64,000 nucleotides of DNA from Candidatus Iainarchaeum sp. (GTDB lineage: Archaea; Iainarchaeota; Iainarchaeia; Iainarchaeales; 0-14-0-20-30-16): assembly GCA_028710695.1 (NCBI GenBank), contig JAQTTP010000001.1, forward strand, positions 11,833 to 75,832, written 5' to 3'. Under the pieces are notes generated by a model. That model was not told the origin of the DNA, searched no databases, and saw only the letters and a program-made list of their open reading frames with translations. The translations under genes were made by a program, and so were the position numbers. Shown piece by piece: positions 11,001 through 54,114 of the stretch (its first letter is position 1; each line of letters starts with the position of its first letter).

Positions 11001-13448
11001 ATGGATGATTTAACCCCCGCAATGAAGCAGTTTGTAAAAGTAAAAAGAGAATATCCTACTTCCTTGCTTCTATTCAGAATGGGCGATTTTTATGAAACTT
11101 TCTTTGATGATGCTAAAATTGCGTCCAAGGTTTTAAACATTACACTTACAAAAAGAGGGGCGCAAGGGGTTCCACTTGCGGGAATACCATACCACGCTTT
11201 AGATAATTACCTGGCAAAGCTTGTTAAGGCCGGGTATACAGTAACTATAGTAGAACAAATGGAAGATCCAAAACTTGCAAAAGGCCGACTAGTAAAAAGA
11301 GATGTTTTACGGACAATCACGCCTGGAACCGTATTAAATGGAGACTTTTTAGACTCAAAAACAAATAATTACATTGTAAGCCTGTGTTTATCTGAAAAAG
11401 TTGGACTAACTGTGTCCGATATTTCCACTGGAGAATTTAAGGTTACAGAACTAAATGATTTAGAAGAACTAGTACACGAATTGATAAAAATACAGCCCGC
11501 AGAAATAATTTTGCCAGACAATACAAGTGACAATATTATTAATAGAATTAAAAAAGTTACAAATTCTACAATCACTCCTTTTTCATTTATATTTTTTAAT
11601 AAAGAATTTGGATTAGAAGAACTAAAAAACCATTTTAATGTTCTATCCCTGGACGGATTTGAAATTAGTAACAAGGATCTAATTATTGCATCTGCAGGGG
11701 CACTATTATATTATTTTAGAATAACTCAAAAAAGCAGAATAAACCACATAAAGACAGTAAAGAAATACAGCATACATGAATTCATGTATTTAGATTCGCA
11801 GACTGTGCAAAATTTAGAACTTATAGAAAATAATTTTGACAGAACAAGAAAGCATACTTTGTTAGGTGTTTTAGATAATACAAATACATCTATGGGCGCA
11901 AGGATGTTAAAAAGAGAGATTTTGAGGCCATTGTTAAATAAACACAAAATTGACGCGAGACTAAATAAAGTTGAAACAATAATAAACTCCCAGTTATATT
12001 ATGACATCGCAGATATTCTAAAACAAATTCCAGATATTGAGAGAATACTTTCAAAAATATCAATGAACACCGCAAATGCAAGAGATTTAATTGGCTTAAA
12101 GAATGCAATATTTGTTTTGCCACAGCTAAAATCATTTTGTGAAAAAATCGAGAATTTTAATTTTGAATTAAACCAAGATATTTTAGATATTGGAAAACTT
12201 ATTGACACAAGCATAGTTAACGAACCACCAATGTTACTAAGGGATGGCGGAATTATAAAAAGAGGATTTAACCAAATAATTGACGAATTAAAAGATATAA
12301 AAGAAAATATAAGTGACAAAATTCTAGCAATCGAAAAAAGCGAACGTGAAAAAACCAACATAAAAGGTTTAAAAGTAAAATACAACAGAATCTTTGGTTA
12401 TTTTATTGAAATTCCCAAGGCAAATGAAAAAGTTCCAGAAAATTATCTTAGAAAACAAACATTAGTAAATGCAGAAAGATACATCACTGAAGAATTAAAA
12501 CAGTTGGAAGACACGTATTTAAGTTCTGAAGAAAAAGCAAAAACTTTGGAATACGATTTATTCTTTAAAATTGTTGAAGAAATTAATACAAAGATTGTTG
12601 ATTTGTACAATGTCACTAAAGGGATTGAAGAAATTGATTTTTTTAATTCAATGGCAATAACTGCAATAAAAAACAATTATGTAAAACCAATAATTTCAGA
12701 AAACTATAACTTGGAAATAACTAATGGACGACACCCAGTTATAGAAAAGATTGAAGAAAATGAATTCATAAAAAATAATTTGTTCTTAGACAAAAACGAA
12801 CAGAACATTATGATTTTGACTGGCCCAAACATGGCAGGAAAATCAACATACTTAAGACAAAATGCATTAATAATTTTAATGGCCCAAATGGGCTCTTTTG
12901 TCCCTGCAGAAAAGGCAAACATAGGATTAATAGACAGAATTTTTACAAGAATTGGTGCGAGAGATAATCTTGCAATGGGTCAAAGTACATTTATGGTAGA
13001 AATGAATGAGGTTGCAAATATTTTAAATAATGCAACCGAAAAAAGTTTTATTATTTTAGATGAAGTTGGAAGAGGAACTTCTACTTTTGATGGGCTAAGC
13101 ATTGCCTGGGCAGTAGTTGAATATATTTTTGAAAACATAAAAGCAAAAACTTTGTTTGCAACACACTATTACCAAATTACCGAGTTAGAAGAAAAGTTTG
13201 CGGGAATAAAAAATTATCATATTTCAGTAAAGGAACATAATGGAGACATAATATTTTTGAGAAAAATTCTACGTGGAAGTATTGATAAAAGTTATGGAAT
13301 AGAAGTTGCAAAGCTTGCAGGAATTCCAAAAGCAGTTATTGAAAGAGCAAAAGTAATTGAGTCACAAATGGAATTAAATATTAACAAAAAAGAAACAGCA
13401 CCAGAAATTACAGTAAAAAAACTTGTTGGCCAGAAGACTTTATTCTAA
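11001..13448 (+). CDS. mutS: DNA mismatch repair protein MutS
   Basis: 815 aa. N-terminal mismatch-binding region TPAMKQF..KREYPTSLLLFRMGDFYETF, Walker A GPNMAGKST, Walker B ILDEVGRGTSTFDG, THY motif. Confidence 0.95.
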   Translation: MDDLTPAMKQFVKVKREYPTSLLLFRMGDFYETFFDDAKIASKVLNITLTKRGAQGVPLAGIPYHALDNYLAKLVKAGYTVTIVEQMEDPKLAKGRLVKRDVLRTITPGTVLNGDFLDSKTNNYIVSLCLSEKVGLTVSDISTGEFKVTELNDLEELVHELIKIQPAEIILPDNTSDNIINRIKKVTNSTITPFSFIFFNKEFGLEELKNHFNVLSLDGFEISNKDLIIASAGALLYYFRITQKSRINHIKTVKKYSIHEFMYLDSQTVQNLELIENNFDRTRKHTLLGVLDNTNTSMGARMLKREILRPLLNKHKIDARLNKVETIINSQLYYDIADILKQIPDIERILSKISMNTANARDLIGLKNAIFVLPQLKSFCEKIENFNFELNQDILDIGKLIDTSIVNEPPMLLRDGGIIKRGFNQIIDELKDIKENISDKILAIEKSEREKTNIKGLKVKYNRIFGYFIEIPKANEKVPENYLRKQTLVNAERYITEELKQLEDTYLSSEEKAKTLEYDLFFKIVEEINTKIVDLYNVTKGIEEIDFFNSMAITAIKNNYVKPIISENYNLEITNGRHPVIEKIEENEFIKNNLFLDKNEQNIMILTGPNMAGKSTYLRQNALIILMAQMGSFVPAEKANIGLIDRIFTRIGARDNLAMGQSTFMVEMNEVANILNNATEKSFIILDEVGRGTSTFDGLSIAWAVVEYIFENIKAKTLFATHYYQITELEEKFAGIKNYHISVKEHNGDIIFLRKILRGSIDKSYGIEVAKLAGIPKAVIERAKVIESQMELNINKKETAPEITVKKLVGQKTLF

Positions 13449-13491
13449 AAAGTAAGATTTATATACTTGTTTTGCATATATATTCCGCTAA

Positions 13492-16400
13492 ATGAAATAT
13501 GGTTGGTTAATCGTTGTCATAGTTACACTTTTACTTTTCCTTGCCGGCTGTATTAATGAAAAAGAAAAAACTGAACTAATTTCTTTGTGTAACAGTAAAA
13601 CAAACATTTCATACAGTGACGCCCCAATTTGCCTAACTGCGACAAAATGTCAAGAAAAATATAATTCTATTTTTGGATCGTCTTTAACGTCCGACACTTT
13701 AAAAATTGTAGAAACTGCAAAATCAAACTATCAAAAGTCTGTTGTGGATTCGTGGGTCGGAATAAGTAATCTATTAGAAACTACTAAAAAAGTAAATGAT
13801 GGTTGTGAGGATCCAACTTCAGATAGCTTTGTAAATGATTTACAATATTTATATTCTTACTCAAAAATAAGTTCAAAAGATCTAGCAAATTTAGGATATA
13901 GACAAACTGTACTTTTGGGAACAATAAAAAATATTTTAGAAAATAACGACATAAATCTTATGGGAGATACAGAAGTTTATAAAACCTACACAGAAGTCAT
14001 AGATAATTGGAATACTTTAATGAATAACTTTGTCTTAGTAAATAAAGAATTTAATTTACAACAGACAAAATACAATTATTGGGCAACATTTAACAGCAGC
14101 TATCTTTATGCTCCAGGAAAAGTTTCGAGCCAGTCTGTTGATAGTTACAAAAACATAATAAAATATGGCTTATTACAAGATGACTTATTTGGATTTACTC
14201 TGGACATAATTCCCGAAAACACGTTATTATCTGCCTTTGCAGATGCGATTTATGATAATGTAATAGGTAGCGATAGTGTAAGCTATGAAAATCTAAGCTC
14301 GGTATTTGAACAGTATTTTAATCTTGGCGATTTTATAAAAGAATATTCCAGTTTGTTTGGATATGGCGGCACATTAATTAATAGTTTAAATGGAAATATT
14401 TCAGAGCTCGACTCAGAAATTAGAACATTGGAATTAACATTAGACACACAGAAAAAAGATATAGAAAAAAATTTTGATGAACTTAAAAACTTAGAAGAAA
14501 ACAGTGACACAGAAAGTTATTTACTATCATACTTTGGAATGGACACGAAAAAAATTGATTATTCCGAAAAAATTGCGAACTTAAAGCTTCAATTACAAAA
14601 CTTAGATAAATCTCTTGGAAAGAAATACCAGGTAACAAATCAAATTGAAAATGAATTAAAAACGATTTTAGATTACAAAAATAAGCAGGCAGAAAATAAT
14701 AATCTTATTTCTTTTTTGTGTAGTTCAGAACTTAATTCAATAATTACTGAAAATAAAAACAATGCAACTTTGAGTTATTATTTTAATAAATTTAAAAGTT
14801 CCAAAGATATCACTGACTGTTATTACTTCTTAAAAAATTCCGAAAATACTGCTGAAACAGATTGTGACTTTGAACTTAAAAAGCTAATTGACGAACTTCA
14901 TTTAGAATACAACTCTGACCCCCAATTCTCTTGTGAAGAACTACAAAAGCTGAAATCTAATATTCTTTTGTATCTAGACAAAATTACTTTTGGAGAAATA
15001 AAAAATAATGTAATTAATGCCGCAGAGAAAGTTAATGTAATTAATTATAAAAGCCCAATTTGTGCAAAACCAGAATCTTATGATTTGCTTGAATTTAAAA
15101 AGCAAATAAAGGGGGTTATTGAAATTTCAGAAAGCATTATCGACTCTGGGCTACAAGGACTAATTGAAAAAATTAATTATTGGAATACAAAAAGTGCAGA
15201 AGTTTTGGAAAACTCTTTGTCTTGCCACCTTACAAATAAAGCAAGGTTATCAAACAATAGCTTAATTTTTGATGTAGGCTTTAATTATGATGGAAAAATT
15301 AATACAAAAATAAAAACAAATTACAATATTACAAGTTTGTCAGGGCAATGTTTAGACAGTTATATCTGTAAGAACAACTATTGTGACTTGATTTTTAGCT
15401 GTTTAAAAAAATTAACTAATTTAGTAATAGAATTTGAAAGTTATAAACAAGAGAAACAAGAAATTAACTATTCGGACGATTTAGAAATAGCTCAAAAGTT
15501 TTGTTTTGAAAATGATAATTCAAACCCGATTTTTGACGAAATATATTCCGCAGATAAAATCAGCGTTTATTCTGATTATGGCAAAGAAATTAAACATTAT
15601 TTAAGTGACAAAAAAATTCAACTGTGGAATCAAGTATTCGAAAAGGGAGATTGTATTTTTATAAAATATTATTTTTATGATGCAATAAAGAAGGCTTTGT
15701 TATTAGAAAGCACAGATAAAATTTCCGAAAACATTACCAGATATAAATATAAGTTAGAATTAGAAAATACAATTTCGGTAACTCAAAATAACATAGCAGT
15801 TAATTTAGATTTTTATTATGATGCTGCTACGCAAAACCCTACAATTTTTGACTCGCAGGGAAAAGAATACAAAATAACAAAAACAAATAGTGGTTTTGTT
15901 TTTTACGCAAGTCTGGGCGCATTGTCTAAAGAAACGTACTCTATTTTATTTTATGCAAAGGATGAACAAAAAAAGTTCATTTTTGAGCTTACAAACATAA
16001 AAACAACAATTTCAGACTTAGCAAATTCAAAAAGTAATACAATAAAAGAAGAGGCCAATAGCCTCCTAAAACAAATTTCTAGCTTAGAAACAGTCAATCC
16101 AAAAAACAACAAGCTTGCTTTTGACGAACTAACTGCTCTAAATAAATCTACGTCTGATCTAATTACAAAAAATAAGAAGTTTTTGGTTTGGGCAGATGAA
16201 AAAGATATCAGCATAAAAAAACTAAAAAATCAAAAAAACTTCTTAGAGCAATTAAAAAGTAACTCGGTAAATCTGATAAAAAAAGAATTAATAAAAGAAT
16301 TTTCCTCTTTTGAAGTCACAGAGGATTTAGCAAAGTTAAATGAGCAGATTAACCTTCTTGAACAATTACCTGAAAATTCAGATATTCCCAAATTAGAAAA

Positions 16401-17274
16401 CATTCGCGACAAATACACAAAAAATTTAGAATCACTTGTTGAAGATGGCTACAAAAAATATTTAATTTTACAAGATAATGCCAAAGCTTTAGATCTAACC
16501 TTTTATGAAAATTCAAGAATATTTGACTCCGCAAAAGAAAGTTTATTTTTTGAGGATTATAATGCCTTATTTAACACAATTACCCAAATGGATGCTTTAT
16601 TAACGCAAAATGAATTAATTATTAATACAAAGGTATCTGAAATAGGAGAAAATATTTTAACTAGATTTTCAAAAATAACTGATATAAAGAACAATTTGGA
16701 TCCAGTTTGGAACAAATATAACTTTTTATTAAACCAATTCAATTCTACAAATTTTGATCTTGTAAAAAAATACGAAAAAATTCCAGTCACTTTATCTGAT
16801 TTAAAAGACAACAAATCGATTTTGGATTCTGTGTCAAAAGAGATAGTTGCATTAAACTCTGCAGAAGAAAATTTCAAAAAGGAATATTTCAAAAATAAAT
16901 TCGACGCAATAAATGACTTTGACTCAAAGAAAATTGACAAAACTATTTTTAATTATCAGCTTGCAAGCAAAAACATTGATGACATTGAAGCAACTCTAAA
17001 CACACTGGCGACAAAAAATATTGATCTTGCGGAAAAAAGTGATGGCGATAAAAGTTTACTTTATGATGCAAAAACAAATTTAGAAAATAGAGATTATTTT
17101 GGAGCAATAATAAATGCAAAAAGAGCAATGGCGGGGGCAGTAACCACAACATCTAAAACTGCAATATATGGTTTAAGTATAGTTATTTTCGGCGCTGTTG
17201 CTTTTGCATTATATTCTTTAGTTTTCAAAAAAAGAAAAAAGAAAAAGATTACTTATTATACTGTTCCAAAATAA
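13492..17274 (+). CDS. giant coiled-coil surface protein, putative lipoprotein with C-terminal membrane anchor
   Basis: 1260 aa. N-terminal signal with lipobox-like LFLAGC, a long low-complexity K/E/N/L-rich heptad-like body, and C-terminal helix IYGLSIVIFGAVAFALYSLVF followed by KKRKKKK. Confidence 0.7.
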   Translation: MKYGWLIVVIVTLLLFLAGCINEKEKTELISLCNSKTNISYSDAPICLTATKCQEKYNSIFGSSLTSDTLKIVETAKSNYQKSVVDSWVGISNLLETTKKVNDGCEDPTSDSFVNDLQYLYSYSKISSKDLANLGYRQTVLLGTIKNILENNDINLMGDTEVYKTYTEVIDNWNTLMNNFVLVNKEFNLQQTKYNYWATFNSSYLYAPGKVSSQSVDSYKNIIKYGLLQDDLFGFTLDIIPENTLLSAFADAIYDNVIGSDSVSYENLSSVFEQYFNLGDFIKEYSSLFGYGGTLINSLNGNISELDSEIRTLELTLDTQKKDIEKNFDELKNLEENSDTESYLLSYFGMDTKKIDYSEKIANLKLQLQNLDKSLGKKYQVTNQIENELKTILDYKNKQAENNNLISFLCSSELNSIITENKNNATLSYYFNKFKSSKDITDCYYFLKNSENTAETDCDFELKKLIDELHLEYNSDPQFSCEELQKLKSNILLYLDKITFGEIKNNVINAAEKVNVINYKSPICAKPESYDLLEFKKQIKGVIEISESIIDSGLQGLIEKINYWNTKSAEVLENSLSCHLTNKARLSNNSLIFDVGFNYDGKINTKIKTNYNITSLSGQCLDSYICKNNYCDLIFSCLKKLTNLVIEFESYKQEKQEINYSDDLEIAQKFCFENDNSNPIFDEIYSADKISVYSDYGKEIKHYLSDKKIQLWNQVFEKGDCIFIKYYFYDAIKKALLLESTDKISENITRYKYKLELENTISVTQNNIAVNLDFYYDAATQNPTIFDSQGKEYKITKTNSGFVFYASLGALSKETYSILFYAKDEQKKFIFELTNIKTTISDLANSKSNTIKEEANSLLKQISSLETVNPKNNKLAFDELTALNKSTSDLITKNKKFLVWADEKDISIKKLKNQKNFLEQLKSNSVNLIKKELIKEFSSFEVTEDLAKLNEQINLLEQLPENSDIPKLENIRDKYTKNLESLVEDGYKKYLILQDNAKALDLTFYENSRIFDSAKESLFFEDYNALFNTITQMDALLTQNELIINTKVSEIGENILTRFSKITDIKNNLDPVWNKYNFLLNQFNSTNFDLVKKYEKIPVTLSDLKDNKSILDSVSKEIVALNSAEENFKKEYFKNKFDAINDFDSKKIDKTIFNYQLASKNIDDIEATLNTLATKNIDLAEKSDGDKSLLYDAKTNLENRDYFGAIINAKRAMAGAVTTTSKTAIYGLSIVIFGAVAFALYSLVFKKRKKKKITYYTVPK

Positions 17275-17283
17275 TTTAAGTAA

Positions 17284-18264
17284 TCAATTCAAGCCAATGA
17301 TTTTACTTACCTTCTTCAATTGTTTTTTGTTCATTGAAAGCAAGGGGTAGTAAATATTTTCACAGTAACCACTGAAACAATCTTTTCCCAGAAACCCATA
17401 AAGCTTTTTGAAAAACTTGTCATATTTTGTTTCTAAGTATTCTTTAAGCTTGTCACAAAATATTTTATTTGGAGTATCAGTCACTACTGGATTTGTTTCT
17501 TCTGCGGGCAGAGTAGTTGTTTGAGTTGAACTAGGCTCTGTTGTTGTAGTCGTTGTTTCTGTTGTGGTTGTAGTTTGTGTTGGAGCTGGCTCTTGCTGAG
17601 CAGGTGGTTGAGTTGTAGTTGTTTCTGTAGGTGCCGGAGGCGGTGTTATTACCTCTGGAACGGAATTGGCTTTATAATAATTATAATATTTCATCACTGT
17701 TTGGACATAGCCATTATTGTTGGGATCAACATATAGGCCATCAATCTGATCTACATCTTGCCAACCATATCTATAAGCAGACGCAACCTTATTCAGATCT
17801 CCAGAATAGTGGTCTGACAAGGCCTTAAGAAACCAACAACCTCTATTAAAGCTTTGGGCGGGGTCAAAAGCATTATCCATATATGGCGCCTTTGCAGGAT
17901 CTGCTTCTGCAGGCATATCATACTTCCAGTTCTTTGGGCTTGGATATGGCACACCAGCCACACCTGGGCCTGTTAGCTGTAAGATTCCTTTACCATAATA
18001 GCTACCACACCATTGTGGTGTTCCGGAGTCATAGGCTAGCTTTTCTTCTTCGTTCACACAAAGTGGATTAAAATCTGATTCTTTATGTGCAATTGCTGAA
18101 ACAAAATAAGGATCTAAGCCCCAGCCATCTTTACAAATTTGGTTTATTTGCACCCAATATGTGCAAATTGGCTCGCTTCCATAAGCTTTAGGGCATTGGT
18201 CATAAGAAAATGACAAAGAAATCAATGCTACAAGAAAAAATCCAAAAATAAATTTATAGCTCAT
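17284..18264 (-). CDS. secreted SLT-family lytic transglycosylase-like protein with Thr/Pro-rich linker
   Basis: Signal peptide FGFFLVALISLSFS. SLT motifs AIAHKESDFNP (ES), GKGILQLT (GLMQ-like) and ASAYRYGW (AYNxG-like). Linker PPPAPTETTTTQPPAQQEPAPTQTTTTTETTTTTTEP. Confidence 0.75.
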   Translation of the reverse strand: MSYKFIFGFFLVALISLSFSYDQCPKAYGSEPICTYWVQINQICKDGWGLDPYFVSAIAHKESDFNPLCVNEEEKLAYDSGTPQWCGSYYGKGILQLTGPGVAGVPYPSPKNWKYDMPAEADPAKAPYMDNAFDPAQSFNRGCWFLKALSDHYSGDLNKVASAYRYGWQDVDQIDGLYVDPNNNGYVQTVMKYYNYYKANSVPEVITPPPAPTETTTTQPPAQQEPAPTQTTTTTETTTTTTEPSSTQTTTLPAEETNPVVTDTPNKIFCDKLKEYLETKYDKFFKKLYGFLGKDCFSGYCENIYYPLLSMNKKQLKKVSKIIGLN

Positions 18265-18556: not shown

Positions 18557-19882
18557 TTATTTAAAAAAATATCTTTTAGCAAGGGCTAATAAAATGATCA
18601 CACCACCAAGGACTGCAGCAAAGATAACTATGTTTGTGTAATCCTCGTCTTCTTCTTGGGCCTGCTTGTCATTGCCATCTTGTGTTTGATTATTGTCTAT
18701 AGACTCAGGCTGAGACGTGGTTAATGGCTTAGTTTGTGCTATTTTCTCACTAACAACTTCAAAGTTACCATCTATTTTTTCACCAGGGAGATACAAAATA
18801 TACGGCACATATGCAATTCCATTTATGTCTGGTGCTTTAAGGTCTAAGCAATAATTTCCATATAAGTTTCCAGTAAACTCTTTTGGCTCAAGAGACGAAA
18901 AAAATGCAATTGGCAAAACTAAAAAGTTTGAATCAATACAAAAGTTAAATTTTTCACCAGATTTTAATTTTTGAGGATAGTTAAAATCATAATTTTGGAT
19001 TATTCCTTTTGTTGAAATAATATTAATGTTTAAGTCAAGAGCATTCGGCTTACTTAAAATAAATCCATCTAATGACACATTTGCAAGAATAGAATCATGC
19101 ATTTCGTCATAGTCAGAAAATGTTGCGCTTTTTATGTGGGTTGCGTCTAAATAATAAACTTGGTTATAAGTTGGATCTGCTCCTATCCAACCATAGTTTA
19201 CATCATAAACATCAAGCCAGGCATGTGATCCCCAACTTTTTCCATCAAAAACATAGCCAACTACAAGCCTTGTTTCATAACCTTTTGATTTTAGAATTGC
19301 AGATTCCAAAATTGAAAAGTCAACACAGACTCCTTTCTTTTTTGTAAGTGTATCTGCAGATGTGTCAACATTATAATATAAATCACTTAGCTTGGAGTAA
19401 TCGTATTCTAAGTTTTTGTTGATCCAGGAAGTAACATTAATTAAAAATTTTATTAAGTCTTTGTCATAAAGATCGTTTGCTAATTTTTGTATTTCGGGGG
19501 ATATAACTAAATAATTGCTGTCAGAATATTGCAAATATTTCAGGTCAGTTGGTTGGGGGCTTTTTATTACATACTCCAATGGAAATTTTACATCTTGGCT
19601 TATATGCTCTAGTTTATAGGTTATCCAGCCATTGCCATACTTATCTACTTCTGACTTTGGGGTTATTGTTTTTGAATCTGCCAAGATACTTTCTTTTACA
19701 GTTTCAAATGACATCGGACGCAAAAGCTTTAGTTCCAACCACTCTTTACTATCAAGATCCTGACCCAAGGAAAGAGAATAATCAAAGCTATACTTTACAG
19801 TTACCTCGCCATAATTGTACGGATAATAAGCGCTAACAAGGGGGATTAAAAGCAAAAAAAGCAGAAAGTAAGATTTATTCAT
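18557..19882 (-). CDS. secreted transglutaminase-like (Cys-His-Asp) protein with C-terminal membrane anchor
   Basis: Signal peptide. Transglutaminase core KKGVCVDFS...GSHAWLDVY...GWIGADPT. C-terminal helix IVIFAAVLGGVIILLALA followed by KRYFFK. Confidence 0.78.
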   Translation of the reverse strand: MNKSYFLLFLLLIPLVSAYYPYNYGEVTVKYSFDYSLSLGQDLDSKEWLELKLLRPMSFETVKESILADSKTITPKSEVDKYGNGWITYKLEHISQDVKFPLEYVIKSPQPTDLKYLQYSDSNYLVISPEIQKLANDLYDKDLIKFLINVTSWINKNLEYDYSKLSDLYYNVDTSADTLTKKKGVCVDFSILESAILKSKGYETRLVVGYVFDGKSWGSHAWLDVYDVNYGWIGADPTYNQVYYLDATHIKSATFSDYDEMHDSILANVSLDGFILSKPNALDLNINIISTKGIIQNYDFNYPQKLKSGEKFNFCIDSNFLVLPIAFFSSLEPKEFTGNLYGNYCLDLKAPDINGIAYVPYILYLPGEKIDGNFEVVSEKIAQTKPLTTSQPESIDNNQTQDGNDKQAQEEDEDYTNIVIFAAVLGGVIILLALAKRYFFK

Positions 19883-19934: not shown

Positions 19935-21143
19935 ATGGTAGATATCAAAGAGATGTTCAGATCGGAGATAAAGAAAAACAGCGTTTTCAAAAACAAGAAC
20001 ATTGTTTCTCCACACTACATCCCAGACATACTGCCATTTAGAGACGACCAGATAAAAGAGATTATATTGAATTTAGCTCCCGCGTTACAAGGAAAGAAGA
20101 TAAACAACTTATTTTTATATGGAAAAACAGGGACTGGAAAAACTAGCACAATAAAAGTAGTTCTTGCAAAAATGGAAGAATTGGCAAAAGAAAGGACTGA
20201 TTGCAAAAATATAGTTACAACTTATATCAATTGTAGAAATCACAATACAAAATATAGAATTATTCTAAAACACATAAACGATTTATACAAACATGACTAT
20301 GTTGGTTACTCTTCTTCTTTCGTTTATGACAAATTAACAGAATATGTAAGAAAAAACAAGATTGGTTTGATAATTGTTCTAGATGAAATTGATTTAATAA
20401 AAGATGTTGATGACACAGTTTATGCATTAACAAGAGCCAATGATGAACTAACGGAAGGATCAATAAGCATTGTCGGGGTATCAAATAATGTAATGTTTAA
20501 ACAAAAATTAGATATGAGAACAAAAAGTAGTTTATGTGAAAAAGAGTTAGTGTTCCCGCCATATAATGCAAACGAACTAACAAAAATATTACAAGACAGA
20601 GTCCAAGAAGGGTTTAATGAAAACTGCGTAGAAGATTCTGCAATTGGGTTAGCATCAGCATATGCTGCACAAGAATCTGGAGACGCAAGAACAGCCATTT
20701 TACTTTTATTGAGGGCTGGAGAAATTGCTGATGAAAACAAAGAAACAAAAATTACTGAAATTGATGTTAGAAATGCAAAAAAGAAAGTTGAAAAAGATAT
20801 TTTACTAAATATGGTCAGCACATTGCCAGAACAATTACAATATGTTTTGTTTGCAATAACCAGATTAACAAAATCAAAAAATCAAACTACTTTGGGGCCA
20901 AATAGCGAAGGCATATTACATTCCGGAGAGGTATACAACGAATATTATCGGATTGCAAAAATACAAGGAAAAAGCCCAGTATCTCTAAAATGGTTCAAAC
21001 AGTATCTTGAGGAACTAGAGCTATATGGAATGATTGCAACAACAATATCTGGAAAAGGAGTAAGAGGGACAACTACCCTTATAAAATTAGGTGCAGACGC
21101 AGGAATTCTAAATAGCATTTTGGAACCAAAAATTAGCATTTAA
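19935..21143 (+). CDS. cdc6: Orc1/Cdc6 replication initiator
   Basis: 402 aa. Walker A GKTGTGKT, Walker B IVLDEID, sensor region GDARTAILLLLRAGEIA, C-terminal winged helix. Confidence 0.95.
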   Translation: MVDIKEMFRSEIKKNSVFKNKNIVSPHYIPDILPFRDDQIKEIILNLAPALQGKKINNLFLYGKTGTGKTSTIKVVLAKMEELAKERTDCKNIVTTYINCRNHNTKYRIILKHINDLYKHDYVGYSSSFVYDKLTEYVRKNKIGLIIVLDEIDLIKDVDDTVYALTRANDELTEGSISIVGVSNNVMFKQKLDMRTKSSLCEKELVFPPYNANELTKILQDRVQEGFNENCVEDSAIGLASAYAAQESGDARTAILLLLRAGEIADENKETKITEIDVRNAKKKVEKDILLNMVSTLPEQLQYVLFAITRLTKSKNQTTLGPNSEGILHSGEVYNEYYRIAKIQGKSPVSLKWFKQYLEELELYGMIATTISGKGVRGTTTLIKLGADAGILNSILEPKISI

Positions 21144-21715
21144 TTCTTTTTTGTTTTCTGTCTTTTTAAGTTAAGCAATTCTCTTTTTATTTTTCTGTCA
21201 AGATCATCATTTATTTGTTTTGATTGCAGAGTTTCAAGCTCAATTTTGTGCTTTGAATATAATTCTTGGAATAAGTTTTCAGACATATTTTTTGACAAAT
21301 ATTTTTTAGTTATTAGATTTATTTTTTCTTTTAGTTCTTGTTCGGTTGTTAATTCAGAAATTTGGGCCACCCTTATTTTTGATTCTAGTTCAAAAATGGC
21401 TTGGTCAAGAATTTCCTTTTTCTTTTTGAAAGTTTCTTCACTTATGCCTCTTTTAAAAAATAGCATCTCAAGTTGCTTTAGTTCTTTTTCTTTTTCATCT
21501 TTTTGTTTATAATATTTTGAAACTTTTGTTTTTTCAAAAATACTTTTAAGCTTGTTAAAAAATGCAAAAAAAGCACCAAGCAAAATAGAAACTACAAAAA
21601 AGATTATTGCGAGAATGAGGAGAACATAAATTGAGGTAAATAAAAAGGCCACTAAAGATATTATTAAAAAAATTACAAAAATAAATAAAATAACAAATAA
21701 CAATTTTTTCATCAT
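21140..21715 (-). CDS. membrane protein (2 TM helices) with cytoplasmic coiled-coil tail; last gene of the secreted-protein operon
   Basis: 191 aa. Two N-terminal hydrophobic helices, then a K/E-rich heptad region. Its 3' end overlaps cdc6 by 4 nt (convergent). Confidence 0.5.
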   Translation of the reverse strand: MMKKLLFVILFIFVIFLIISLVAFLFTSIYVLLILAIIFFVVSILLGAFFAFFNKLKSIFEKTKVSKYYKQKDEKEKELKQLEMLFFKRGISEETFKKKKEILDQAIFELESKIRVAQISELTTEQELKEKINLITKKYLSKNMSENLFQELYSKHKIELETLQSKQINDDLDRKIKRELLNLKRQKTKKN

Positions 21716-21725
21716 AAAAATACCA

Positions 21726-22322
21726 TCAGCTGTAGACTTTTATGCTATCTTTTATCACATAATACCCAAACAGATCATTTTCAAAGTCAGAGGTATTTGC
21801 TGAGTATTGGATTGTTATATACTGCCCACTAAAAGGATATGAATAAAACAAATATTTTTTGTTGTCTTTTGTTGAGCAAAATTGATAGGTATCTCCAATT
21901 TGCAAATAGGTTACTGCATCAAAACCATATTCACTTGTAGTGTCTTTTATTAAGTCAGTAATTTTGCTGTATTTCAGAGCTTGTACCGATATTTTGCTAT
22001 TTCCTTTAGAAAAAGTTAGGGGGCTTGCACTAAATAATGAATAGCCTTCTGGTTCAGATAAATAAACTTGGCCAAAGGCGTATTGTGTACCAGATAGATT
22101 TGCAGTTGAAGCCTTCAAACCTTGTAGACAGTCGCCTTCAGAAAAAGTGTATTTTTTCTCTTCTGCTTTTGTGTCTTTTACGTCGGGAAGGTTTATGCCA
22201 AGACCAGATTTTTCAATACTGTCTTTTGGCTTTACTTCTGCGCCAGAAGTAACAACATAAACAACTAAAACTGCAATAAGGGCAATTAAAATCAATATCA
22301 AAACGATGAGTCTTTTATTCAC
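21726..22322 (-). CDS. N-terminally anchored or secreted hypothetical protein
   Basis: 198 aa with N-terminal RLIVLILILIALIAVLVVYVV. GTG start overlaps the upstream TGA stop (GTGA) and is preceded by GGAAGGTGA. Confidence 0.55.
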   Translation of the reverse strand: MNKRLIVLILILIALIAVLVVYVVTSGAEVKPKDSIEKSGLGINLPDVKDTKAEEKKYTFSEGDCLQGLKASTANLSGTQYAFGQVYLSEPEGYSLFSASPLTFSKGNSKISVQALKYSKITDLIKDTTSEYGFDAVTYLQIGDTYQFCSTKDNKKYLFYSYPFSGQYITIQYSANTSDFENDLFGYYVIKDSIKVYS

Positions 22323-24739
22323 TTTCTCACCTTCCTACTAATTATAAACCCCACTGCAAACAATAGCAATAATACAACCGGGAATGAAATTGCCGGGGTT
22401 TTAAATACTTTTGTTGAACCAACAACAGTAAATGCAAATTCATCTTCAAGACCTTGTATTGACAAACTTATGTTATAAGGTTCTGGCATTGCTTTAGCAA
22501 GCTTTGTGCCATCAACTAAATAATATACTATTTTTGCATCACCAGGACTTAATGTGAAATCATCAAAGTCTTTTGTTTCTTTATTTGTGTATGGGCCAGA
22601 TAAACCAACAATTTCGTTGTTGTCGTACCACAACCCAGATTCAAATTCCACCGGAGTAAATGAATATTCTGTAAGACCGTTATTTGTAATTATTATTTCC
22701 AGTTCTTTGATTTCATCTTGTTTCATAGTTTGGAATTTCTTGACATCTAAAAATAATCCCAAACCAACAGCAGGAACTATTTCTATTTTGTTAGAATTAT
22801 AACTACAGTAATATTCTTGAATATCAGGAATTGCGTTTTTATAACAAACTTCTAATTTCAAGTCGTAAACATTAAAGTCCACAAGTTTTCCATTAATCTT
22901 AAAATCCCAGGAATCTAATATGTTTTGGCCTGCAGCATTATCTCCGCTTTTTATAATTACCTCATTAAGATACCAATCATAAATATAATCATAGCTTGCA
23001 TTAATGTCTGCTTGTAATTCCATTACATTTTTTCTTTCTATTTTCTTTGGAACCCCTGCTGCTGGGCCCATTTTGCTTTGTGCATTAAGATTACAATAAT
23101 TTTTCTTTCCAGTATCAATCCAATCCGTAGAAACTGGTTTTATTGATTTTATTTTTGGAGTATTTTCTATAAAGACCATTAGATTTACGTTTGAAATAAA
23201 TAACCCATTATAATACAAGTAAGTTACTAACATTTTTGGTTCTGGATCTTTGCTTGTTGTTGTAAAAAGGCCTTTATTTGAATATTCCAATTTCTTTTGT
23301 AGTGGCCCAAAGAAAAATCCAGAATTACTATCTAATTTTTTAAGAACTAATTCTTTAATTAAAAAATATGAAAGGAATTGTTCCTCATTAGAATTCTTTT
23401 TTGAAGTATAATAGTTGTCAAGTAATGTCGCTTCTTTTAATATGGTATCTTCTTTTTTATTATCAGAAAATACATATGCAGAGTACAAAGAGGTAATGTT
23501 TTGCACAGGTAGTTGTTTGGCCTTAATAGTTTGTATTAATGCATTTAAATCTACGGGCCTAATGTCCAAATTATCTGCAATTTGAGAAAAGGACATTTTT
23601 GAAAGCCCTTGCGGGTTACCCAATAATACCGCCTTGTTTGCGGGGCTATAAACAACATCAAAGATTGCTTTTAGTTTGTTGCTTGTTTGTGTTAGCTCAT
23701 CTGCAGATAAAAGCAAATTCAAAATAACTCCATTGTAGTCTTTATCAGACACAAGGTTTAAAGTATAATCAAAATCGTATTTTACGCCTTTGTTACAAAC
23801 ATAGATATCTCCAAGCACGGTTTCCATTGTAACAGATGGGAATTTTAAGGTTATTACTGGCGGAGGATTAGACCATACCAAGTTATAACTTCTAGAATAT
23901 AGCACTTGATTTGTATCATTTTTTACTGCAAGAATAAAATAAACATCTTTTTTTTCATAAATGCCTGGATACAAAGTAGAATAATATAAGGCATTTTTTA
24001 TATTTCCGTAAGCCAAATCCAAAGAATAAGTTTTATTTTCTATTCCTTTTTCTGTCTTTATTTCTGTAAATGTATTATTATCAAAAGAGTACAAAAAGCT
24101 TACAGTATAGTTATTATCATTAAAATCAACATTACCTACTTTTACGTTTAACGGCAGATCAAAATTTTCTATTTCTAATATGTTGTCCAGTGAAATCCCA
24201 TTCTTTATTAAAGTTGGTTTTTTTACAACAACATATGCATTTACCGCAGTAGAATCTAAGCCATATAAAATTGTTGCATTTGCTTTGTAAGTTCCAGGAT
24301 ATGTTGCCTTAAAACTTAACAAAAAATGATATGGATTATACGAAAAATAATTCCCACTTTCATAAGAATAAGTATTATTTTTGTAAGGTATTTCTAAAGA
24401 TGCAAATTCAGGAGTTACTTTCCAATACCATTGCATTTTGTTATAAACATTTCCAGTTATCACTGACGGATACAAACTAAGGGTTTCTCCAAAGTTTATT
24501 GTCTTTTGAGAATAACCAAGATTTAAAGTCTGATCATTGTCAGCATTAAGCCCAGAATCAAGTTCAAAACAAATATTTACATCTTCATTTGATGAGCAGT
24601 TATAACTCTGTTCTCCAATTTGGAAATCAAAGTTGTAGGTATATTGCTTTCCGTTTACAGTAAATTGGTAAGAGCCAGCAAATACTGCACAACTTAATAA
24701 AACCAAAAACAAAACAAAAAATATTTTTCTAAAATCCAT
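22319..24739 (-). CDS. large secreted hypothetical protein with C-terminal membrane anchor
   Basis: About 806 aa. Sec-type signal KIFFVLFLVLLSCAVFAG, beta-rich N/Y/S/T composition, C-terminal SFPVVLLLLFAVGFIISRKVRK. GTGATC SD contains the stop of the upstream gene. Confidence 0.6.
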   Translation of the reverse strand: MDFRKIFFVLFLVLLSCAVFAGSYQFTVNGKQYTYNFDFQIGEQSYNCSSNEDVNICFELDSGLNADNDQTLNLGYSQKTINFGETLSLYPSVITGNVYNKMQWYWKVTPEFASLEIPYKNNTYSYESGNYFSYNPYHFLLSFKATYPGTYKANATILYGLDSTAVNAYVVVKKPTLIKNGISLDNILEIENFDLPLNVKVGNVDFNDNNYTVSFLYSFDNNTFTEIKTEKGIENKTYSLDLAYGNIKNALYYSTLYPGIYEKKDVYFILAVKNDTNQVLYSRSYNLVWSNPPPVITLKFPSVTMETVLGDIYVCNKGVKYDFDYTLNLVSDKDYNGVILNLLLSADELTQTSNKLKAIFDVVYSPANKAVLLGNPQGLSKMSFSQIADNLDIRPVDLNALIQTIKAKQLPVQNITSLYSAYVFSDNKKEDTILKEATLLDNYYTSKKNSNEEQFLSYFLIKELVLKKLDSNSGFFFGPLQKKLEYSNKGLFTTTSKDPEPKMLVTYLYYNGLFISNVNLMVFIENTPKIKSIKPVSTDWIDTGKKNYCNLNAQSKMGPAAGVPKKIERKNVMELQADINASYDYIYDWYLNEVIIKSGDNAAGQNILDSWDFKINGKLVDFNVYDLKLEVCYKNAIPDIQEYYCSYNSNKIEIVPAVGLGLFLDVKKFQTMKQDEIKELEIIITNNGLTEYSFTPVEFESGLWYDNNEIVGLSGPYTNKETKDFDDFTLSPGDAKIVYYLVDGTKLAKAMPEPYNISLSIQGLEDEFAFTVVGSTKVFKTPAISFPVVLLLLFAVGFIISRKVRK

Positions 24740-24744
24740 AAAGA

Positions 24745-25428
24745 TCACTTAGGAATTGGGCCCCCAAAGCCTTCTGGAACTTCTTGAGGTAATTCAAAAT
24801 CATCAGGGTTTATACCGCCCATTTTGTTGTCGTATTGCTCTAAGATAAAGTCATAAGCATTATCTGAATAAATGCCTGCGCCAATTAATGCGTCATAATC
24901 AACAGATGGAATTGAAGTTGCAATAGTAGAAAATGATGGCGGTGGCAAAATGTTAAATAACACATAGGCGTTTGCTGCTTTTAGGCCCATACTTAGCCCT
25001 TTGTAAGCAAGAGGATATTTTGTAGTAAAGATAACTGCAAAAGTCTTATTATTTGTAAGTTTAGATGGTGTAAAAACTGCCTTATAACCATATCCAAAAG
25101 CATCAGTAAAAATCATATTTCCTACGACACAACTATTATTTCCAATACACTTTATTGTACTTCCTGCGGGTGCGTTTATGCTTTTTATTTTTATGTTCGC
25201 GTAAATGTTGTAATCATAAATTGTTTCATTTATCTCTGGGGCGTTAAAATCATACCCACTTATTAAATCGGAGATTGAAATATCACCATAAGGATCATAT
25301 GTTTGTGTATTATAATATTCTTGGGGCTGTTCAAAGTTTATTGGTTTTGCATTGACGTCTAAAGAGTATAGAACCCCCGCACATAAAACCAAAAACAAAC
25401 AAACCAAACTAATTCTTTTAACATTCAT
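24745..25428 (-). CDS. secreted hypothetical protein
   Basis: 227 aa with signal peptide RISLVCLFLVLCAGVLYS. AGGTG SD overlaps the TAG stop of the upstream gene. Confidence 0.55.
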   Translation of the reverse strand: MNVKRISLVCLFLVLCAGVLYSLDVNAKPINFEQPQEYYNTQTYDPYGDISISDLISGYDFNAPEINETIYDYNIYANIKIKSINAPAGSTIKCIGNNSCVVGNMIFTDAFGYGYKAVFTPSKLTNNKTFAVIFTTKYPLAYKGLSMGLKAANAYVLFNILPPPSFSTIATSIPSVDYDALIGAGIYSDNAYDFILEQYDNKMGGINPDDFELPQEVPEGFGGPIPK

Positions 25429-25436
25429 AAAAACAC

Positions 25437-26693
25437 CTACTTAAGTTGTATCTCCAAAGATGGATAATTGTAAGTACAAATTATTTTGAAATCTGGATTA
25501 TTAAGTTCTATATTTTGTGTTCCAATATCATCATCTGTAGCACCAAACTTGGCGCCAAAAGAAAATTCAAGATTATCATAAGGGAAGTATGCTTCTATTG
25601 AATAAGTTACATTTGGATCCTCAAACAGTACTGCCTTTCCATTTTTTAATTTAAGAGGCATTGAATAATTACCATACTGCAAGCCATAAGGAATCTCTGA
25701 ATCGTCCAAATTTTGTGTAATTTCTTCTAAAATTAGGCCATTTGGATTTTTTAATTTAACGTTCACAGCATAATTATCACATAAATCTTGTGTAAGTGGC
25801 ACAAAAAGAAGAGGGCCATAAGTAAATTGAGATTTAAAGGAGTCAGGGATATTATAAACTAGAATAAAAGAAGTATAATAACTGGCCAGGGGGGTGCATT
25901 CACAGTCTTCAGAAAAATCAGTACAATCAGAATTACAAACCAGCTCCTTCCCATAAGAAACTTTTATTGTTTGGATACTTATATCTTCTGGGCACTGGCC
26001 TTGTTTTGCAAATAAATAATACATTGTATTATTGTATGACAATTCGCCACAATAAGTTATTAGTTGGTCTGCAGGTAATAAAAAACCAAGATAGTTTTGA
26101 GATCCAGACGGACAAAATGGGTTACCGTCGTCATCTAATTCACAAAAATAATCGCTTATAAACTTAGAAAAATGACTGTCCATGTCTGCTTTGTTATGAT
26201 AGCTCCAATTGTCAAACTTTAAACTCCATTTGTACTGACCAGTTGTAATTGTTTTTTCAGAAGTGGTGTCTTGGCCTGCAAGTGCAAGATAAAAATGAGT
26301 TGATGTTCTTGATAAAATGTCTTTTTTATTTACATAAATAATTCCAGAAAATTCTGAAATTAAAGAGATTTTTCCGTTTGCAGCATTTGAAAATATTTGT
26401 TGAGGTACTTTTTTCTTTGAACCCTCAGAGCTAATTAAAAAATAAACTTTATTTAGGTCACAACCTGCCACAGAAAAACAGGTACCTGAAATATTATTTC
26501 CGGCTCCAGACAAAGATGGATTTACTACTTTTACATAAACTGGATACATTTGGAAAATGTTTTCAGAAGTAAGCACAGAAATTACATCAACATTGCCAAG
26601 AATTGTACCTAGATTTACAGGAGTAAAAGAAAATCCAATTCCAACAAAAATAAATAATCCAAATAATAAAGATAAAACTGCTTGCTTATGCAT
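25437..26693 (-). CDS. secreted hypothetical protein (Cys-containing)
   Basis: About 418 aa with N-terminal hydrophobic AVLSLLFGLFIFVGIGFSF and multiple Cys pairs in the central region. GTGAT SD precedes ATG-26693. Confidence 0.55.
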   Translation of the reverse strand: MHKQAVLSLLFGLFIFVGIGFSFTPVNLGTILGNVDVISVLTSENIFQMYPVYVKVVNPSLSGAGNNISGTCFSVAGCDLNKVYFLISSEGSKKKVPQQIFSNAANGKISLISEFSGIIYVNKKDILSRTSTHFYLALAGQDTTSEKTITTGQYKWSLKFDNWSYHNKADMDSHFSKFISDYFCELDDDGNPFCPSGSQNYLGFLLPADQLITYCGELSYNNTMYYLFAKQGQCPEDISIQTIKVSYGKELVCNSDCTDFSEDCECTPLASYYTSFILVYNIPDSFKSQFTYGPLLFVPLTQDLCDNYAVNVKLKNPNGLILEEITQNLDDSEIPYGLQYGNYSMPLKLKNGKAVLFEDPNVTYSIEAYFPYDNLEFSFGAKFGATDDDIGTQNIELNNPDFKIICTYNYPSLEIQLK

Positions 26694-26768
26694 ACCCATC
26701 ACTTTCCTTACTTATATATATTATTAAGATATTTATTACTTACGATTTTGCCCACTGGTATTCCAACA

Positions 26769-27263
26769 TTAACCAAAGGACTCTAGAATCAGTGAATTCA
26801 ATACTTTGGAAGTGTTTCCATCAACAGAAATAAGCCAATACATGTTTACTAATTTTTCATTGGCAGTTATTGGTTTTGGGCCAGATAGGTCTTTTGTGGA
26901 AATAAGAGAGACATCGTAAACACACAATTTGCTATTTTTGTTTGTTTCTTGCCCAGAATAAAGAGCATTAACTACTGACATATCAAAGCCGAGGGAATTG
27001 GCATCACTTAGTAGAGCCCCTTCGTTCACATTAAAGCTAATCGACTTTAGAACTTCTTCACTTGCATTTGAGTCAAAACCGATATATTCCAAAAGGAAGA
27101 AACTATAGGGTACAAGATAATTTTTGTCTTGGTAGATATCAACATTTAAACAATTAAATTCAGCAGGGGCTTTGCTTCCTCGAGAAATAATCACAAAAAG
27201 AATAATGGCTATTGCGATTAAAACTAGGAAAAAAGATATATATGCTTTATGTTTAAATCCCAT
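26769..27263 (-). CDS. N-terminally anchored hypothetical protein; first gene of the secreted-protein operon
   Basis: About 164 aa with N-terminal KHKAYISFFLVLIAIAIILFVIISRG. Confidence 0.5.
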   Translation of the reverse strand: MGFKHKAYISFFLVLIAIAIILFVIISRGSKAPAEFNCLNVDIYQDKNYLVPYSFFLLEYIGFDSNASEEVLKSISFNVNEGALLSDANSLGFDMSVVNALYSGQETNKNSKLCVYDVSLISTKDLSGPKPITANEKLVNMYWLISVDGNTSKVLNSLILESFG

Positions 27264-27390
27264 CAGACTCACGAAGAAAATAGGAAATATAGCTTTATAT
27301 TTATTTGCTTTCTAAAGTTATATTAACTTATACTAGAGAATTTCTCGGTAGAATTTCATTTTTTGAAAATAAGTTTTTAAGGTGATTAAA

Positions 27391-28140
27391 ATGGGTTTAC
27401 GACCTGCAAGATGTTATAGAGATATCGAAAGATCTTATACAAGAGTAGCTAATAGAGTACAGGCAAAGGATTTCATTGGTGGTGTGCCAAGAACAAGAGT
27501 AAGACAGTTCGTGCTTGGAGACCAGACAAAAGATTTCCCAAAAGTAATACATGTATTTAGTAGCGAGGGGCTACAAATAAGAGACAATGCTTTAGAAGCA
27601 TTTAGGCAGAAGTTAGCTAAAGTTTTAAACGATATTTGCGGTAAAGATAACTTCTTTACAAAGATAAGAATATACCCACATCACGTTCTAAGACAAAACA
27701 AACTAGCAAGTGGTGCTGGTGCTGACCGTTTGTCAAGTGGAATGAAACACGCTTTCGGAAAGCCAATCGGCAGATCCGCGCAAGTAAAAAAAGGGCAGAA
27801 TGTTTTATCAATTGTAGTTAATCCTGAATTTGTAGACAAAATTGTAATCTCATTAAAGACTATTATTAACAAAATTCACTTCAAATATAACATAAAAGTG
27901 GAAGACCATAAAGACAAGATATTAACTGGAAGAAAGAAGTGGACTAGAGAAATCAAGAAGGCGGCATTAGAAACTGAAACTCCTGAAGCAACAGCTACAA
28001 CTAAGGATGCAAAAGTAGATCCTAAGGCTAAAGGCAAAGATGGAAAAGCAGCAGGAAAAGATACAAAAGCTGCTGCTGCACCAGCAAAAGAAGATCCTAA
28101 AGCAAAGGGCAAAGATGCAAAAGGAAAAGGCAAGAAGTAA
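27391..28140 (+). CDS. rpl10e: 50S ribosomal protein L10e (uL16) with long Lys/Ala-rich C-terminal extension
   Basis: Starts MGLRPARCYR after AAGGTGAT SD. The conserved core ends near residue 172. The last ~78 aa form a K/A/D/T-rich tail with DPKAKGKD repeated. Confidence 0.95.
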   Translation: MGLRPARCYRDIERSYTRVANRVQAKDFIGGVPRTRVRQFVLGDQTKDFPKVIHVFSSEGLQIRDNALEAFRQKLAKVLNDICGKDNFFTKIRIYPHHVLRQNKLASGAGADRLSSGMKHAFGKPIGRSAQVKKGQNVLSIVVNPEFVDKIVISLKTIINKIHFKYNIKVEDHKDKILTGRKKWTREIKKAALETETPEATATTKDAKVDPKAKGKDGKAAGKDTKAAAAPAKEDPKAKGKDAKGKGKK

Positions 28141-53977: not shown

Positions 53978-54114
53978 CGTAATCATCTCTTTAGCTAAAG
54001 ATATGTAAAATATGGCGTATAAATATATAAAAGTATATCTAAAGACCCAAATAAGCCCAACTTATTTCACATAAGTTTAAATAAGTTTTGTGACTTTAAT
54101 TATTAGTGATTGTT

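Follow-up and report, generated by a model that had tools for sequence, protein, structure and literature searches.

A clade-restricted row of candidate envelope-protein genes with a strain-variable cassette between orc1/cdc6 and uL16 in an Iainarchaeum genome

A stretch of 64,000 nucleotides (nt) from Candidatus Iainarchaeum sp. (Iainarchaeota, DPANN/Nanobdellati group), called the window from now on, was analyzed for the genes lying between orc1/cdc6 and the gene of the ribosomal protein uL16 (L10e). Six genes are located there, all on the minus strand; they were labelled A to F, with A first and F last in the direction of transcription. Gene B carries a cassette which is hypervariable at the strain level, a new observation that an earlier sequence-only reading of this DNA had missed. 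Judged by gene order in related genomes, A to E appear to form a five-gene set restricted to a narrow clade of the Iainarchaeia. We favor with modest confidence the explanation that A–E are a clade-restricted island for an exposed envelope complex, in which D would serve as the anchor and B would be the part that is exposed and varies. For DPANN archaea a life in contact with other cells is assumed, and the interface molecules are mostly unknown for uncultured phyla including the Iainarchaeota. DPANN genomes commonly encode secreted proteins without known relatives.

Related loci (L-numbers) and related proteins (P-numbers) were collected using orc1 and uL16 as anchors, and about 25 loci were recovered. 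The cassette in B was seen among contigs of one sister lineage, lineage II, which comprises L002 and L005 on the orc1 side and L017, L021, L022 and L026–L030 on the uL16 side. The contigs of this lineage are 98–99% identical at the nucleotide level across uL16, A, the A–B spacer and the first 330–400 nt of B, and their blastn alignments all end at the same point in B. Compared with L022, the nucleotide identity was 90–100% across A and the first ~330–400 nt of B, 43–53% over B codons ~103/140–240 (L021/L028 and L017/L029), and again 91–95% in C and over the closing ~40 codons of B (L028). Three types of the cassette were distinguished, with a pair of independent contigs behind each of them: L022/L027, L021/L028 and L017/L029. 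Near the N-terminus of B, two short patches (residues 28–42 and 59–63) reassort independently of the cassette, which is a mark of homologous recombination among co-existing alleles. The alleles of B are mosaics. The window has a longer allele of B (418 aa), which keeps the conserved ends of the other alleles. Of nine contigs with A, six stop within B (L017, L021, L023, L026, L029 and L030), and the metagenome-assembled genome (MAG) GCA_964565125.1 is split within B into L026 and L002. The variability of B explains why MAGs of this clade are fragmented at this position.

Two known classes of variable genes were considered for B and rejected. Against a target of a diversity-generating retroelement speak both the window, where the scanned open reading frames (ORFs) contain no reverse transcriptase domain and nothing resembling a template copy of the B region was found as a direct repeat, and the alleles. 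Variation in such targets is confined to adenine-templated positions of a C-terminal variable region; the B alleles differ in ~50–55% of their nucleotides, at all bases and with indels, and their extreme C-terminus is conserved. A polymorphic toxin is not consistent with a variable part that is central, with ~40 conserved residues at the end of the protein and with the lack of a toxin domain in Pfam and PADLOC searches. A toxin/immunity pair of B and C was likewise dismissed, as the downstream gene C stays 91–95% identical across the allele types of B.

The sequence-only reading had named synteny in related genomes as a check on the gene cluster, and gene order is indeed kept in three sub-lineages. 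The lineage of the window and two sisters retain the full order A-B-C-D-E-F, seen as A-B-C-D in L027 and as C-D-E-F-orc1 in L002 and L024. The products of the sister represented by L024/L012 (Orc1 ~90% identical) are 83% (C), 83% (D), 88% (E) and 82% (F) identical to those of the window. In lineage II the corresponding values are 75% for A, ~41% for B (first 160 residues only), 62% for C, 73% for D, 79% for E and 79% for F. Homologues of A adjoin uL16 in L017/L021/L022/L027 with 74–75% identity and, with 42–44% identity, in L019/L018 (uL16 68%), where the contigs end. Homologues of B have 281–287 aa in L022/L027/L028 and L004, the C homologue in L027 has 220 aa, and E homologues in L002/L005/L012/L024 are 79–88% identical.

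A shorter arrangement was found in the lineage of L004, L008, L014 and L016 (Orc1 80.5% and uL16 75% identical). Its order is uL16 / B'' (287 aa) - D'' (565 aa, P0003) - F / orc1, and A, C and E are absent from this three-gene variant. In L004 the stop codon of B'' and the start codon of D'' overlap (1275/1275) and F follows 4 nt after D''. More distant Iainarchaeia (L003, L009, L013 and L020; Orc1 55–64%) possess between orc1 and the divergent uL16 only an F-like gene of 181–200 aa, which encodes two transmembrane helices and a coiled coil, in L003 together with an OmdA-like gene in the same slot, and no trace of A–E was detected within 10 kb in any of these four loci. The identity of F to its counterparts is 53% for L004 and 30% for L009. 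The idea of one six-gene unit thus had to be given up: F is older and stays between orc1 and uL16 in relatives without A–E, and its composition differs from that of A–E (isoelectric point (pI) 9.7, cytoplasmic tail). Gene A does not support such a unit either, having a separate spacer with a TATA-like element and being missing from the three-gene variant. By these comparisons F is an older resident of the slot, outside the novelty described here. B and D are the core that travels together, with A, C and E coming and going. The new genes are located between F and the divergent promoter region, and F is now the 3' end of the row.

These data bear on a competing view, according to which the slot is a hotspot where unrelated, fast-evolving genes of secreted proteins have gathered between conserved genes and the products act independently. 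The content of the slot is fluid, with 0, 2 or 5 genes ahead of F across the clade, A and F have histories separate from B–E, and many genes of the region at 13.5–27.3 kb encode secreted proteins, among them an orphan of 1260 aa, one with an SLT domain and one resembling transglutaminases. All of this would suit a hotspot. However, the order B-C-D-E with its tight or overlapping junctions is kept across lineages at a synonymous divergence (dS) of ~1, and B-like and D-like genes travel together in the five-gene as well as in the three-gene variant, where they overlap in L004. We therefore consider independent products unlikely.

All six co-directional ORFs reported by the sequence-only reading next to orc1/cdc6 were found in the ORF list, at 26769–27272 (A, 167 aa), 25437–26702 (B, 421 aa), 24745–25428 (C, 227 aa), 22319–24748 (D, 809 aa), 21726–22322 (E, 198 aa) and 21140–21715 (F, 191 aa). 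Corrected starts yield 164 aa for A (ATG 27263), 418 aa for B (ATG 26693) and 806 aa for D (ATG 24739). An independent gene caller gave 164, 420, 227, 806, 198 and 190 aa for A–F on the same contig. The ORF coordinates of that reading are correct; its count of four ORFs shortened by 3 aa is a trivial slip, since only three were named. The junctions which it had taken as signs of translational coupling could be read from the sequence as described. The TAG stop codon of B (25439–25437) lies within tAGGTG and is followed by six bases (TTTTTT) and the ATG of C at 25428. The TGA of C (24747–24745) lies within GTGATC, and the ATG of D is located at 24739. D and E share GTGA at 22322–22319, and the stop codon of E (21728–21726) is separated by a 10-nt gap from the ATG of F at 21715. 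From B to F the genes either overlap or lie 5–10 nt apart. Genes B, C, D and E are preceded by Shine-Dalgarno (SD)-like GGTG/GTGA motifs, and A by a weak one; in the window as a whole only 19 of the 55 genes have such a motif. This fits internal genes of an archaeal operon. F and orc1/cdc6 converge, and their 3' ends share 4 nt (21140–21143), which leaves no space for terminators.

The gap between A and B amounts to 66–75 nt and has its own TATA-like element. This spacer (26694–26768, minus strand) contains the element (aatatatataag) and an SD-like GTGA and may serve as an internal promoter for B–F; lineage II keeps a spacer of similar length (69 nt). Gene A probably forms a separate transcription unit or opens the row. 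The divergent intergenic region between A and uL16 (rpl10e), at 27264–27390, shows a TATA-like sequence (gctatattt) ~22 nt upstream of the ATG of A and is the presumed promoter region for both genes. The divergent layout of the A side and uL16 is the same in all relatives.

A hydrophobic segment at the N-terminus of each of the six products was confirmed by hydropathy. About 16 of the 55 window ORFs start in this way, and on that estimate six such ORFs in a row are expected ~0.03 times per window; consequently, the run is unlikely to have arisen by chance. The 164-aa product of A (26769–27263, minus strand; 167 aa if read from GTG 27272) has a transmembrane (TM) segment at residues 3–34, a predicted signal-anchor, a pI of 4.9 and a predicted extracellular domain of ~130 aa. 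B (25437–26693, minus strand) encodes a putatively secreted protein of 418 aa with a Sec-type signal and 12 cysteines, in which a conserved N-terminal domain, marked by the motif CF[ST]xAGCD, and a conserved C-terminal end with CTY enclose the hypervariable center. The 227-aa product of C (24745–25428, minus strand) is likewise predicted to be secreted and combines a Sec-type signal with a beta-rich core and a proline-rich, acidic C-terminal tail. D (22319–24739, minus strand; 806 aa) is a predicted type-I membrane protein, which begins with a signal peptide and closes with a TM segment followed by basic residues. E (21726–22322, minus strand; 198 aa), whose GTG start overlaps the stop codon of D, has an N-terminal TM segment at residues 1–32 and a predicted extracellular domain of ~165 aa. 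F (21140–21715, minus strand; 191 aa; pI 9.68) was rightly described as a protein of two TM helices with a coiled coil: a hydrophobic start of 57 residues, accounting for both helices, precedes a basic, K/E-rich cytoplasmic tail of 134 aa.

The composition of the products agrees with this picture. A–E are acidic (pI 4.5–5.5; F 9.7) and contain 1.0–1.3 N-X-S/T sequons per 100 aa, whereas 11 cytoplasmic proteins encoded in the window average ~0.36. Tyr, Asn and Ser/Thr are abundant in A–E and Lys and Glu scarce, as in the nearby secreted transglutaminase-like and 1260-aa proteins. A–E thus look like exported, extracellular proteins. A and E may serve as anchored accessories, and C may be another soluble component.

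The sequence of protein D is that of NCBI PHH82_00170, annotated as "MAG: hypothetical protein" (Candidatus ainarchaeum sp.) and encoded on a contig of 238 kb. Its signal peptide is followed by two beta-rich N-terminal modules, which are common to P0003 (~22% identity), and by a middle insert of ~350 residues (about 300–650) specific to the clade of the window, with a variable patch at residues 351–450. A conserved Ig-like, membrane-proximal domain (~660–775) leads to a TP[AG]IS motif, behind which lie the TM helix and the basic tail. The C-terminal anchor postulated before was found at residues 777–805, followed by RKVRK; the protein ends with ...KTPAISFPVVLLLLFAVGFIISRKVRK, which comprises the TM segment and the basic tail, and the whole family retains TP[AG]IS. 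Between sub-lineages the last 150 residues share 86–98% identity, have the lowest ratio of non-synonymous to synonymous substitution (dN/dS 0.01–0.08) and are the only part clearly common to P0003. Residues 351–450 are 46–52% identical to L012, between flanks of 84–100%, with a dN/dS of 0.2–0.3. Such a polarity of conservation is expected of a stalk fixed in the membrane with an exposed distal part. A role of D as an archaeosortase substrate was rejected, since a known motif (PGF, PEF, VPXXXP...) is missing and NCBIfam gave no match at E ≤ 1. The TP[AG]IS motif does not occur in other C-terminally anchored proteins of the window, and no archaeosortase gene was found among the scanned ORFs of the 64-kb window.

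One could regard D as the membrane-anchored lattice or stalk of a surface layer (S-layer) whose canopy is formed by B and/or C, on the model of the S-layers with two components in other archaea. The large size of D, its signal peptide, its acidic and sequon-rich sequence and its C-terminal anchor fit this proposal, as do the conserved ends and the variable middle of B. That genes of surface layers change quickly and frequently lack known relatives also counts in its favor. However, A–E matched neither the Pfam S-layer families (at E ≤ 1) nor any S-layer chain in the PDB, they are missing at the locus in relatives with 55–64% orc1 identity, and D'' has only 565 aa. DPANN S-layer proteins of several phyla have been described as MSTP-like beta-sandwich orthologues, among which one Iainarchaeota protein of 1039 aa is listed (bioRxiv 10.1101/2024.05.28.596244), and D shows no detectable relation to MSTP-like proteins. 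The cluster is also phylogenetically too unstable for a core component of the envelope. We regard an S-layer as quite unlikely.

The coding status of the genes was assessed from substitution rates against L002, whose Orc1 is 94% identical. The dN/dS values, which are rough in view of a dS near saturation (~0.8–1.1), were 0.25 for C, 0.175 for D, 0.14 for E and 0.11 for F, compared with 0.034 for orc1, 0.032 for MutS and 0.09–0.12 for neighboring secreted proteins. C–F thus evolve 3–7 times faster at non-synonymous positions than the housekeeping genes and are under purifying selection. Since their dN/dS lies at 0.11–0.25, these genes are real; in D the ratio stays below 1 along the whole length. 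For A and B, diverged but intact homologues were found (A 74% and 42% identity; B 37–42%). A frameshift or pseudogene of D in L002 was ruled out: the orthologue contains a scaffold gap of 100 N with a duplicated flank of 55 nt. This gap (L002 ~13477–13579) is an assembly artefact of the public MAG which mimics a frameshift.

The sequence-only reading had recognized no enzymatic motif in the six products, and indeed they match no known family. In an exhaustive phmmer search of 1.84 billion representative proteins D had three relatives only: P0002, the C-terminal half of the L002 orthologue, P0004, a fragment of 50 aa, and P0003 (565 aa, 30% identity), the sole true distant relative among these matches. 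A word-indexed homologue search with D returned only D itself, and a profile of the B family retrieved B and P0096 only. No paralogues of A–F were found in the window, and a comparison of B with D revealed no similarity. The segments AVNAYVVV in D and AANAYVLF in C, from which a common domain had been suspected, are present, but a shared domain did not find support (BLASTP E 0.45; hhalign probability 0.4%); the pattern F..F...YP..YK...NAYV in both proteins may be a generic beta-hairpin signature.

The favored explanation can be outlined as follows. B–E, and probably F, would be co-transcribed and translationally coupled through the SD-like GGTG/GTGA motifs in or at the preceding stop codons, and the products would be exported by Sec. 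D would be held in the membrane by its C-terminal TM helix, with the Ig-like domain adjoining the membrane and the variable parts pointing outward. A and E would be held by their N-terminal anchors; B and C would be released and retained by binding to anchored partners. Together they might build an exposed structure of the envelope which makes contact with a host, a partner cell or a substrate and is hence visible to viruses. B would be the most exposed member, its conserved termini presumably serving assembly, and its central cassette of ~100–140 residues would be swapped between co-existing strains via homologous recombination under a selective agent that we can only infer. Export, anchoring and the operon are deduced from the sequence, and exposure from the composition and the pattern of variation; the formation of a complex and its biological role, be it in adhesion or as a target of viruses, are conjecture.

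Several observations weigh against this explanation. Searches of A–F against Pfam, NCBIfam, PHROGs and PADLOC gave sub-threshold noise only, and searches of A–E against the PDB by sequence and by profiles per family gave nothing below E 0.1. The AlphaFold2 (AF2) model of D, built from an alignment of four sequences, had a mean predicted local distance difference test (pLDDT) score of 32.7 and was unusable except for residues ~662–760, where a beta-sandwich was obtained with a pLDDT of 55–84; that of B, also from four sequences, was unusable throughout (pLDDT 29.7). With the D model, Foldseek found generic Ig-like/E-set matches in the PDB, none at E ≤ 1e-3. At the fold level the models thus support a single generic Ig-like domain in D. 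Topology and signal peptides were judged via hydropathy and by eye. The B alleles come from different assemblies, which have neighboring ENA accession numbers and probably stem from one study; chimeric assembly retains some probability, although each allele type has two independent contigs behind it. Besides the roughness of the dN/dS values, no 50-codon window of D had a dN/dS above 1.

An ATPase-independent filament built by donor-strand exchange, like threads, bundling pili or cannulae, would assign the role of the subunit to B or C and that of the anchor or tip adhesin to D. Such filaments need no dedicated machinery (PMC12518558). The sequence-only reading had noted that no pilus ATPase, platform protein or sortase gene is nearby, and none was identified by Pfam, the scan covering 52 of the 55 window ORFs of at least 120 aa; domains of prepilin peptidase, archaeosortase and reverse transcriptase were not found among the scanned ORFs either. 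Small secreted, beta-rich proteins (B and C) beside a large anchored one (D), no secretion ATPase in the window, and the flagellin-like pattern of B with conserved termini and a hypervariable center would all be in line with a filament. Yet neither a TasA/camelysin (Peptidase_M73) match in Pfam nor a filament subunit in the PDB was obtained, no model supports a jelly-roll with a donor strand, the B model being of the low quality given above, and a class III signal occurs in none of A–F. We are very doubtful of such a filament. Type IV pilins or archaellins were rejected for A–F on the same absence of a class III signal, which was sought by a regular expression of the FlaFind type (a charged residue and G/A at positions -2/-1 ahead of the hydrophobic stretch) in the first 40 residues, and because the scanned ORFs include no PilB/FlaI-type ATPase, PilC/FlaJ platform protein or PibD/FlaK prepilin peptidase; E scored 13.8 bits against Pilin_N (cut-off 25.2, E 0.11). 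Lipobox patterns were not found in A–F. A bolder version of the attachment idea holds that A–E constitute an undescribed ATPase-independent attachment organelle or filament of one freshwater-type Iainarchaeia clade, with D as the anchor and B as a flagellin-like subunit whose cassette sets the specificity for hosts or partners or evades viruses; this, too, appears distinctly unlikely.

A remnant of an integrated virus or mobile element encoding envelope or receptor-binding proteins seems highly improbable. The insertion-like distribution between conserved genes, the orphan status and the hypervariable, receptor-binding-like B would agree with it. Against this, no integrase, capsid, terminase or meaningful PHROGs match was found, a search for repeats resembling origin recognition boxes (ORB) or att sites around the cluster gave AT-rich chance matches only, and the nearest tRNA lies 2.7 kb beyond orc1. 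The GC content of the cluster (0.30–0.33) is the same as in the rest of the window, and the cluster keeps its place in several sub-lineages.

With a GC content of about 0.28–0.35 the window is AT-rich; it carries archaeal housekeeping genes: orc1/cdc6, uL16 (L10e), phosphoenolpyruvate (PEP) synthase, diphthamide synthesis, aRF1, Pelota, ABCE1, Elp3, GINS, primase, TFE, topoisomerase and MutS/MutL. MutS is complete (domains I–V; 11001–13448, plus strand) and accompanied by MutL (54825–56573, minus strand) in this DPANN archaeon with a small genome. The uL16 protein (27391–28140, plus strand) has a Lys/Ala-rich C-terminal tail of ~70 residues with a tandem duplication of 75 nt (especially 28009–28133); similar tails exist in relatives (e.g., L003) and are unusual for this ribosomal protein. 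Several other genes of the window encode secreted proteins. The 1260-aa orphan (13492–17274, plus strand) has a lipobox-like signal end (LLFLAGC), a C-terminal TM segment and a poly-Lys tail, gave no Pfam match, and is conserved in relatives, with 75% identity in L002/L011 and ~40% in the L004 type; its size and features make it a further candidate for a large envelope or S-layer protein. A secreted SLT lytic-transglycosylase (murein-cleaving) protein with a Thr/Pro-rich linker (17284–18264, minus strand) hints at an interaction with bacterial walls; its position is occupied by an unrelated ORF of 296 aa in L004-type relatives. The secreted transglutaminase-like (Transglut_core/DUF553) protein (18557–19882, minus strand) has a C-terminal TM anchor, and its gene adjoins orc1 in all close relatives (48–79% identity). 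A secreted protein of 757 aa (51713–53986, minus strand) contains 60 cysteines and matches no Pfam family above threshold (weak DUF7107 match). In L021 an OrfB_IS605 (TnpB-like) gene (539–1333) lies ~8 kb from the cluster and is missing at the corresponding position of the window.

The locus offers a candidate interface defined by synteny, with one anchored scaffold (D), one strain-variable protein (B) and mapped boundaries of the cassette. The mapped cassette and the pair of anchor and variable protein make population-level tests possible. Should the products prove to be independent exoproteins of the usual sort, the finding would matter only locally.

Among known systems, D resembles C-terminally anchored archaeal S-layer glycoproteins (haloarchaeal PGF-CTERM proteins and SlaB of the Sulfolobales) in its signal peptide, its acidic, sequon-rich, beta-sandwich-like ectodomain and the succession of a short conserved motif, a TM helix and a basic tail. 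In contrast to these proteins its motif is TP[AG]IS and not PGF, no NCBIfam or Pfam match exists, and no archaeosortase was found among the scanned window ORFs. The cluster shares with ATPase-independent filaments such as Sulfolobus threads, Pyrobaculum bundling pili and Pyrodictium cannulae (PMC12518558) the arrangement of secreted beta-rich proteins without type IV pilus genes nearby, but no TasA-superfamily signal was found in the sequences of the cluster.

Bacterial flagellin and other surface antigens combine conserved termini with a hypervariable central domain. B, with its near-identical ends, its exchangeable center and the reassorting N-terminal patches, parallels flagellin as a functional analogy only; it has no relation to flagellin in sequence or structure, no export or assembly apparatus is encoded nearby, and B as a polymer would be an analogy as well. 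Hypervariable ("metagenomic") genomic islands with cell-surface proteins are known from Haloquadratum, Pelagibacter and others. As in these islands, exported proteins occupy a fixed slot between housekeeping genes, the content varies between close lineages, strain variation is extreme and local, and assemblies break at the variable gene. A gene of a hypervariable extracellular protein likewise fragmented the assembly of an episymbiotic Gracilibacteria genome (PMC6851277). The locus differs from such islands in having a discrete cassette of ~300–400 nt within one gene, with conserved ends and mosaic recombination, and in being neither an array of short repeats nor an island of glycosylation genes; its protein families are new. 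By analogy of function, the locus resembles the known islands and may be viewed as a lineage-specific, variable island of surface proteins from new families.

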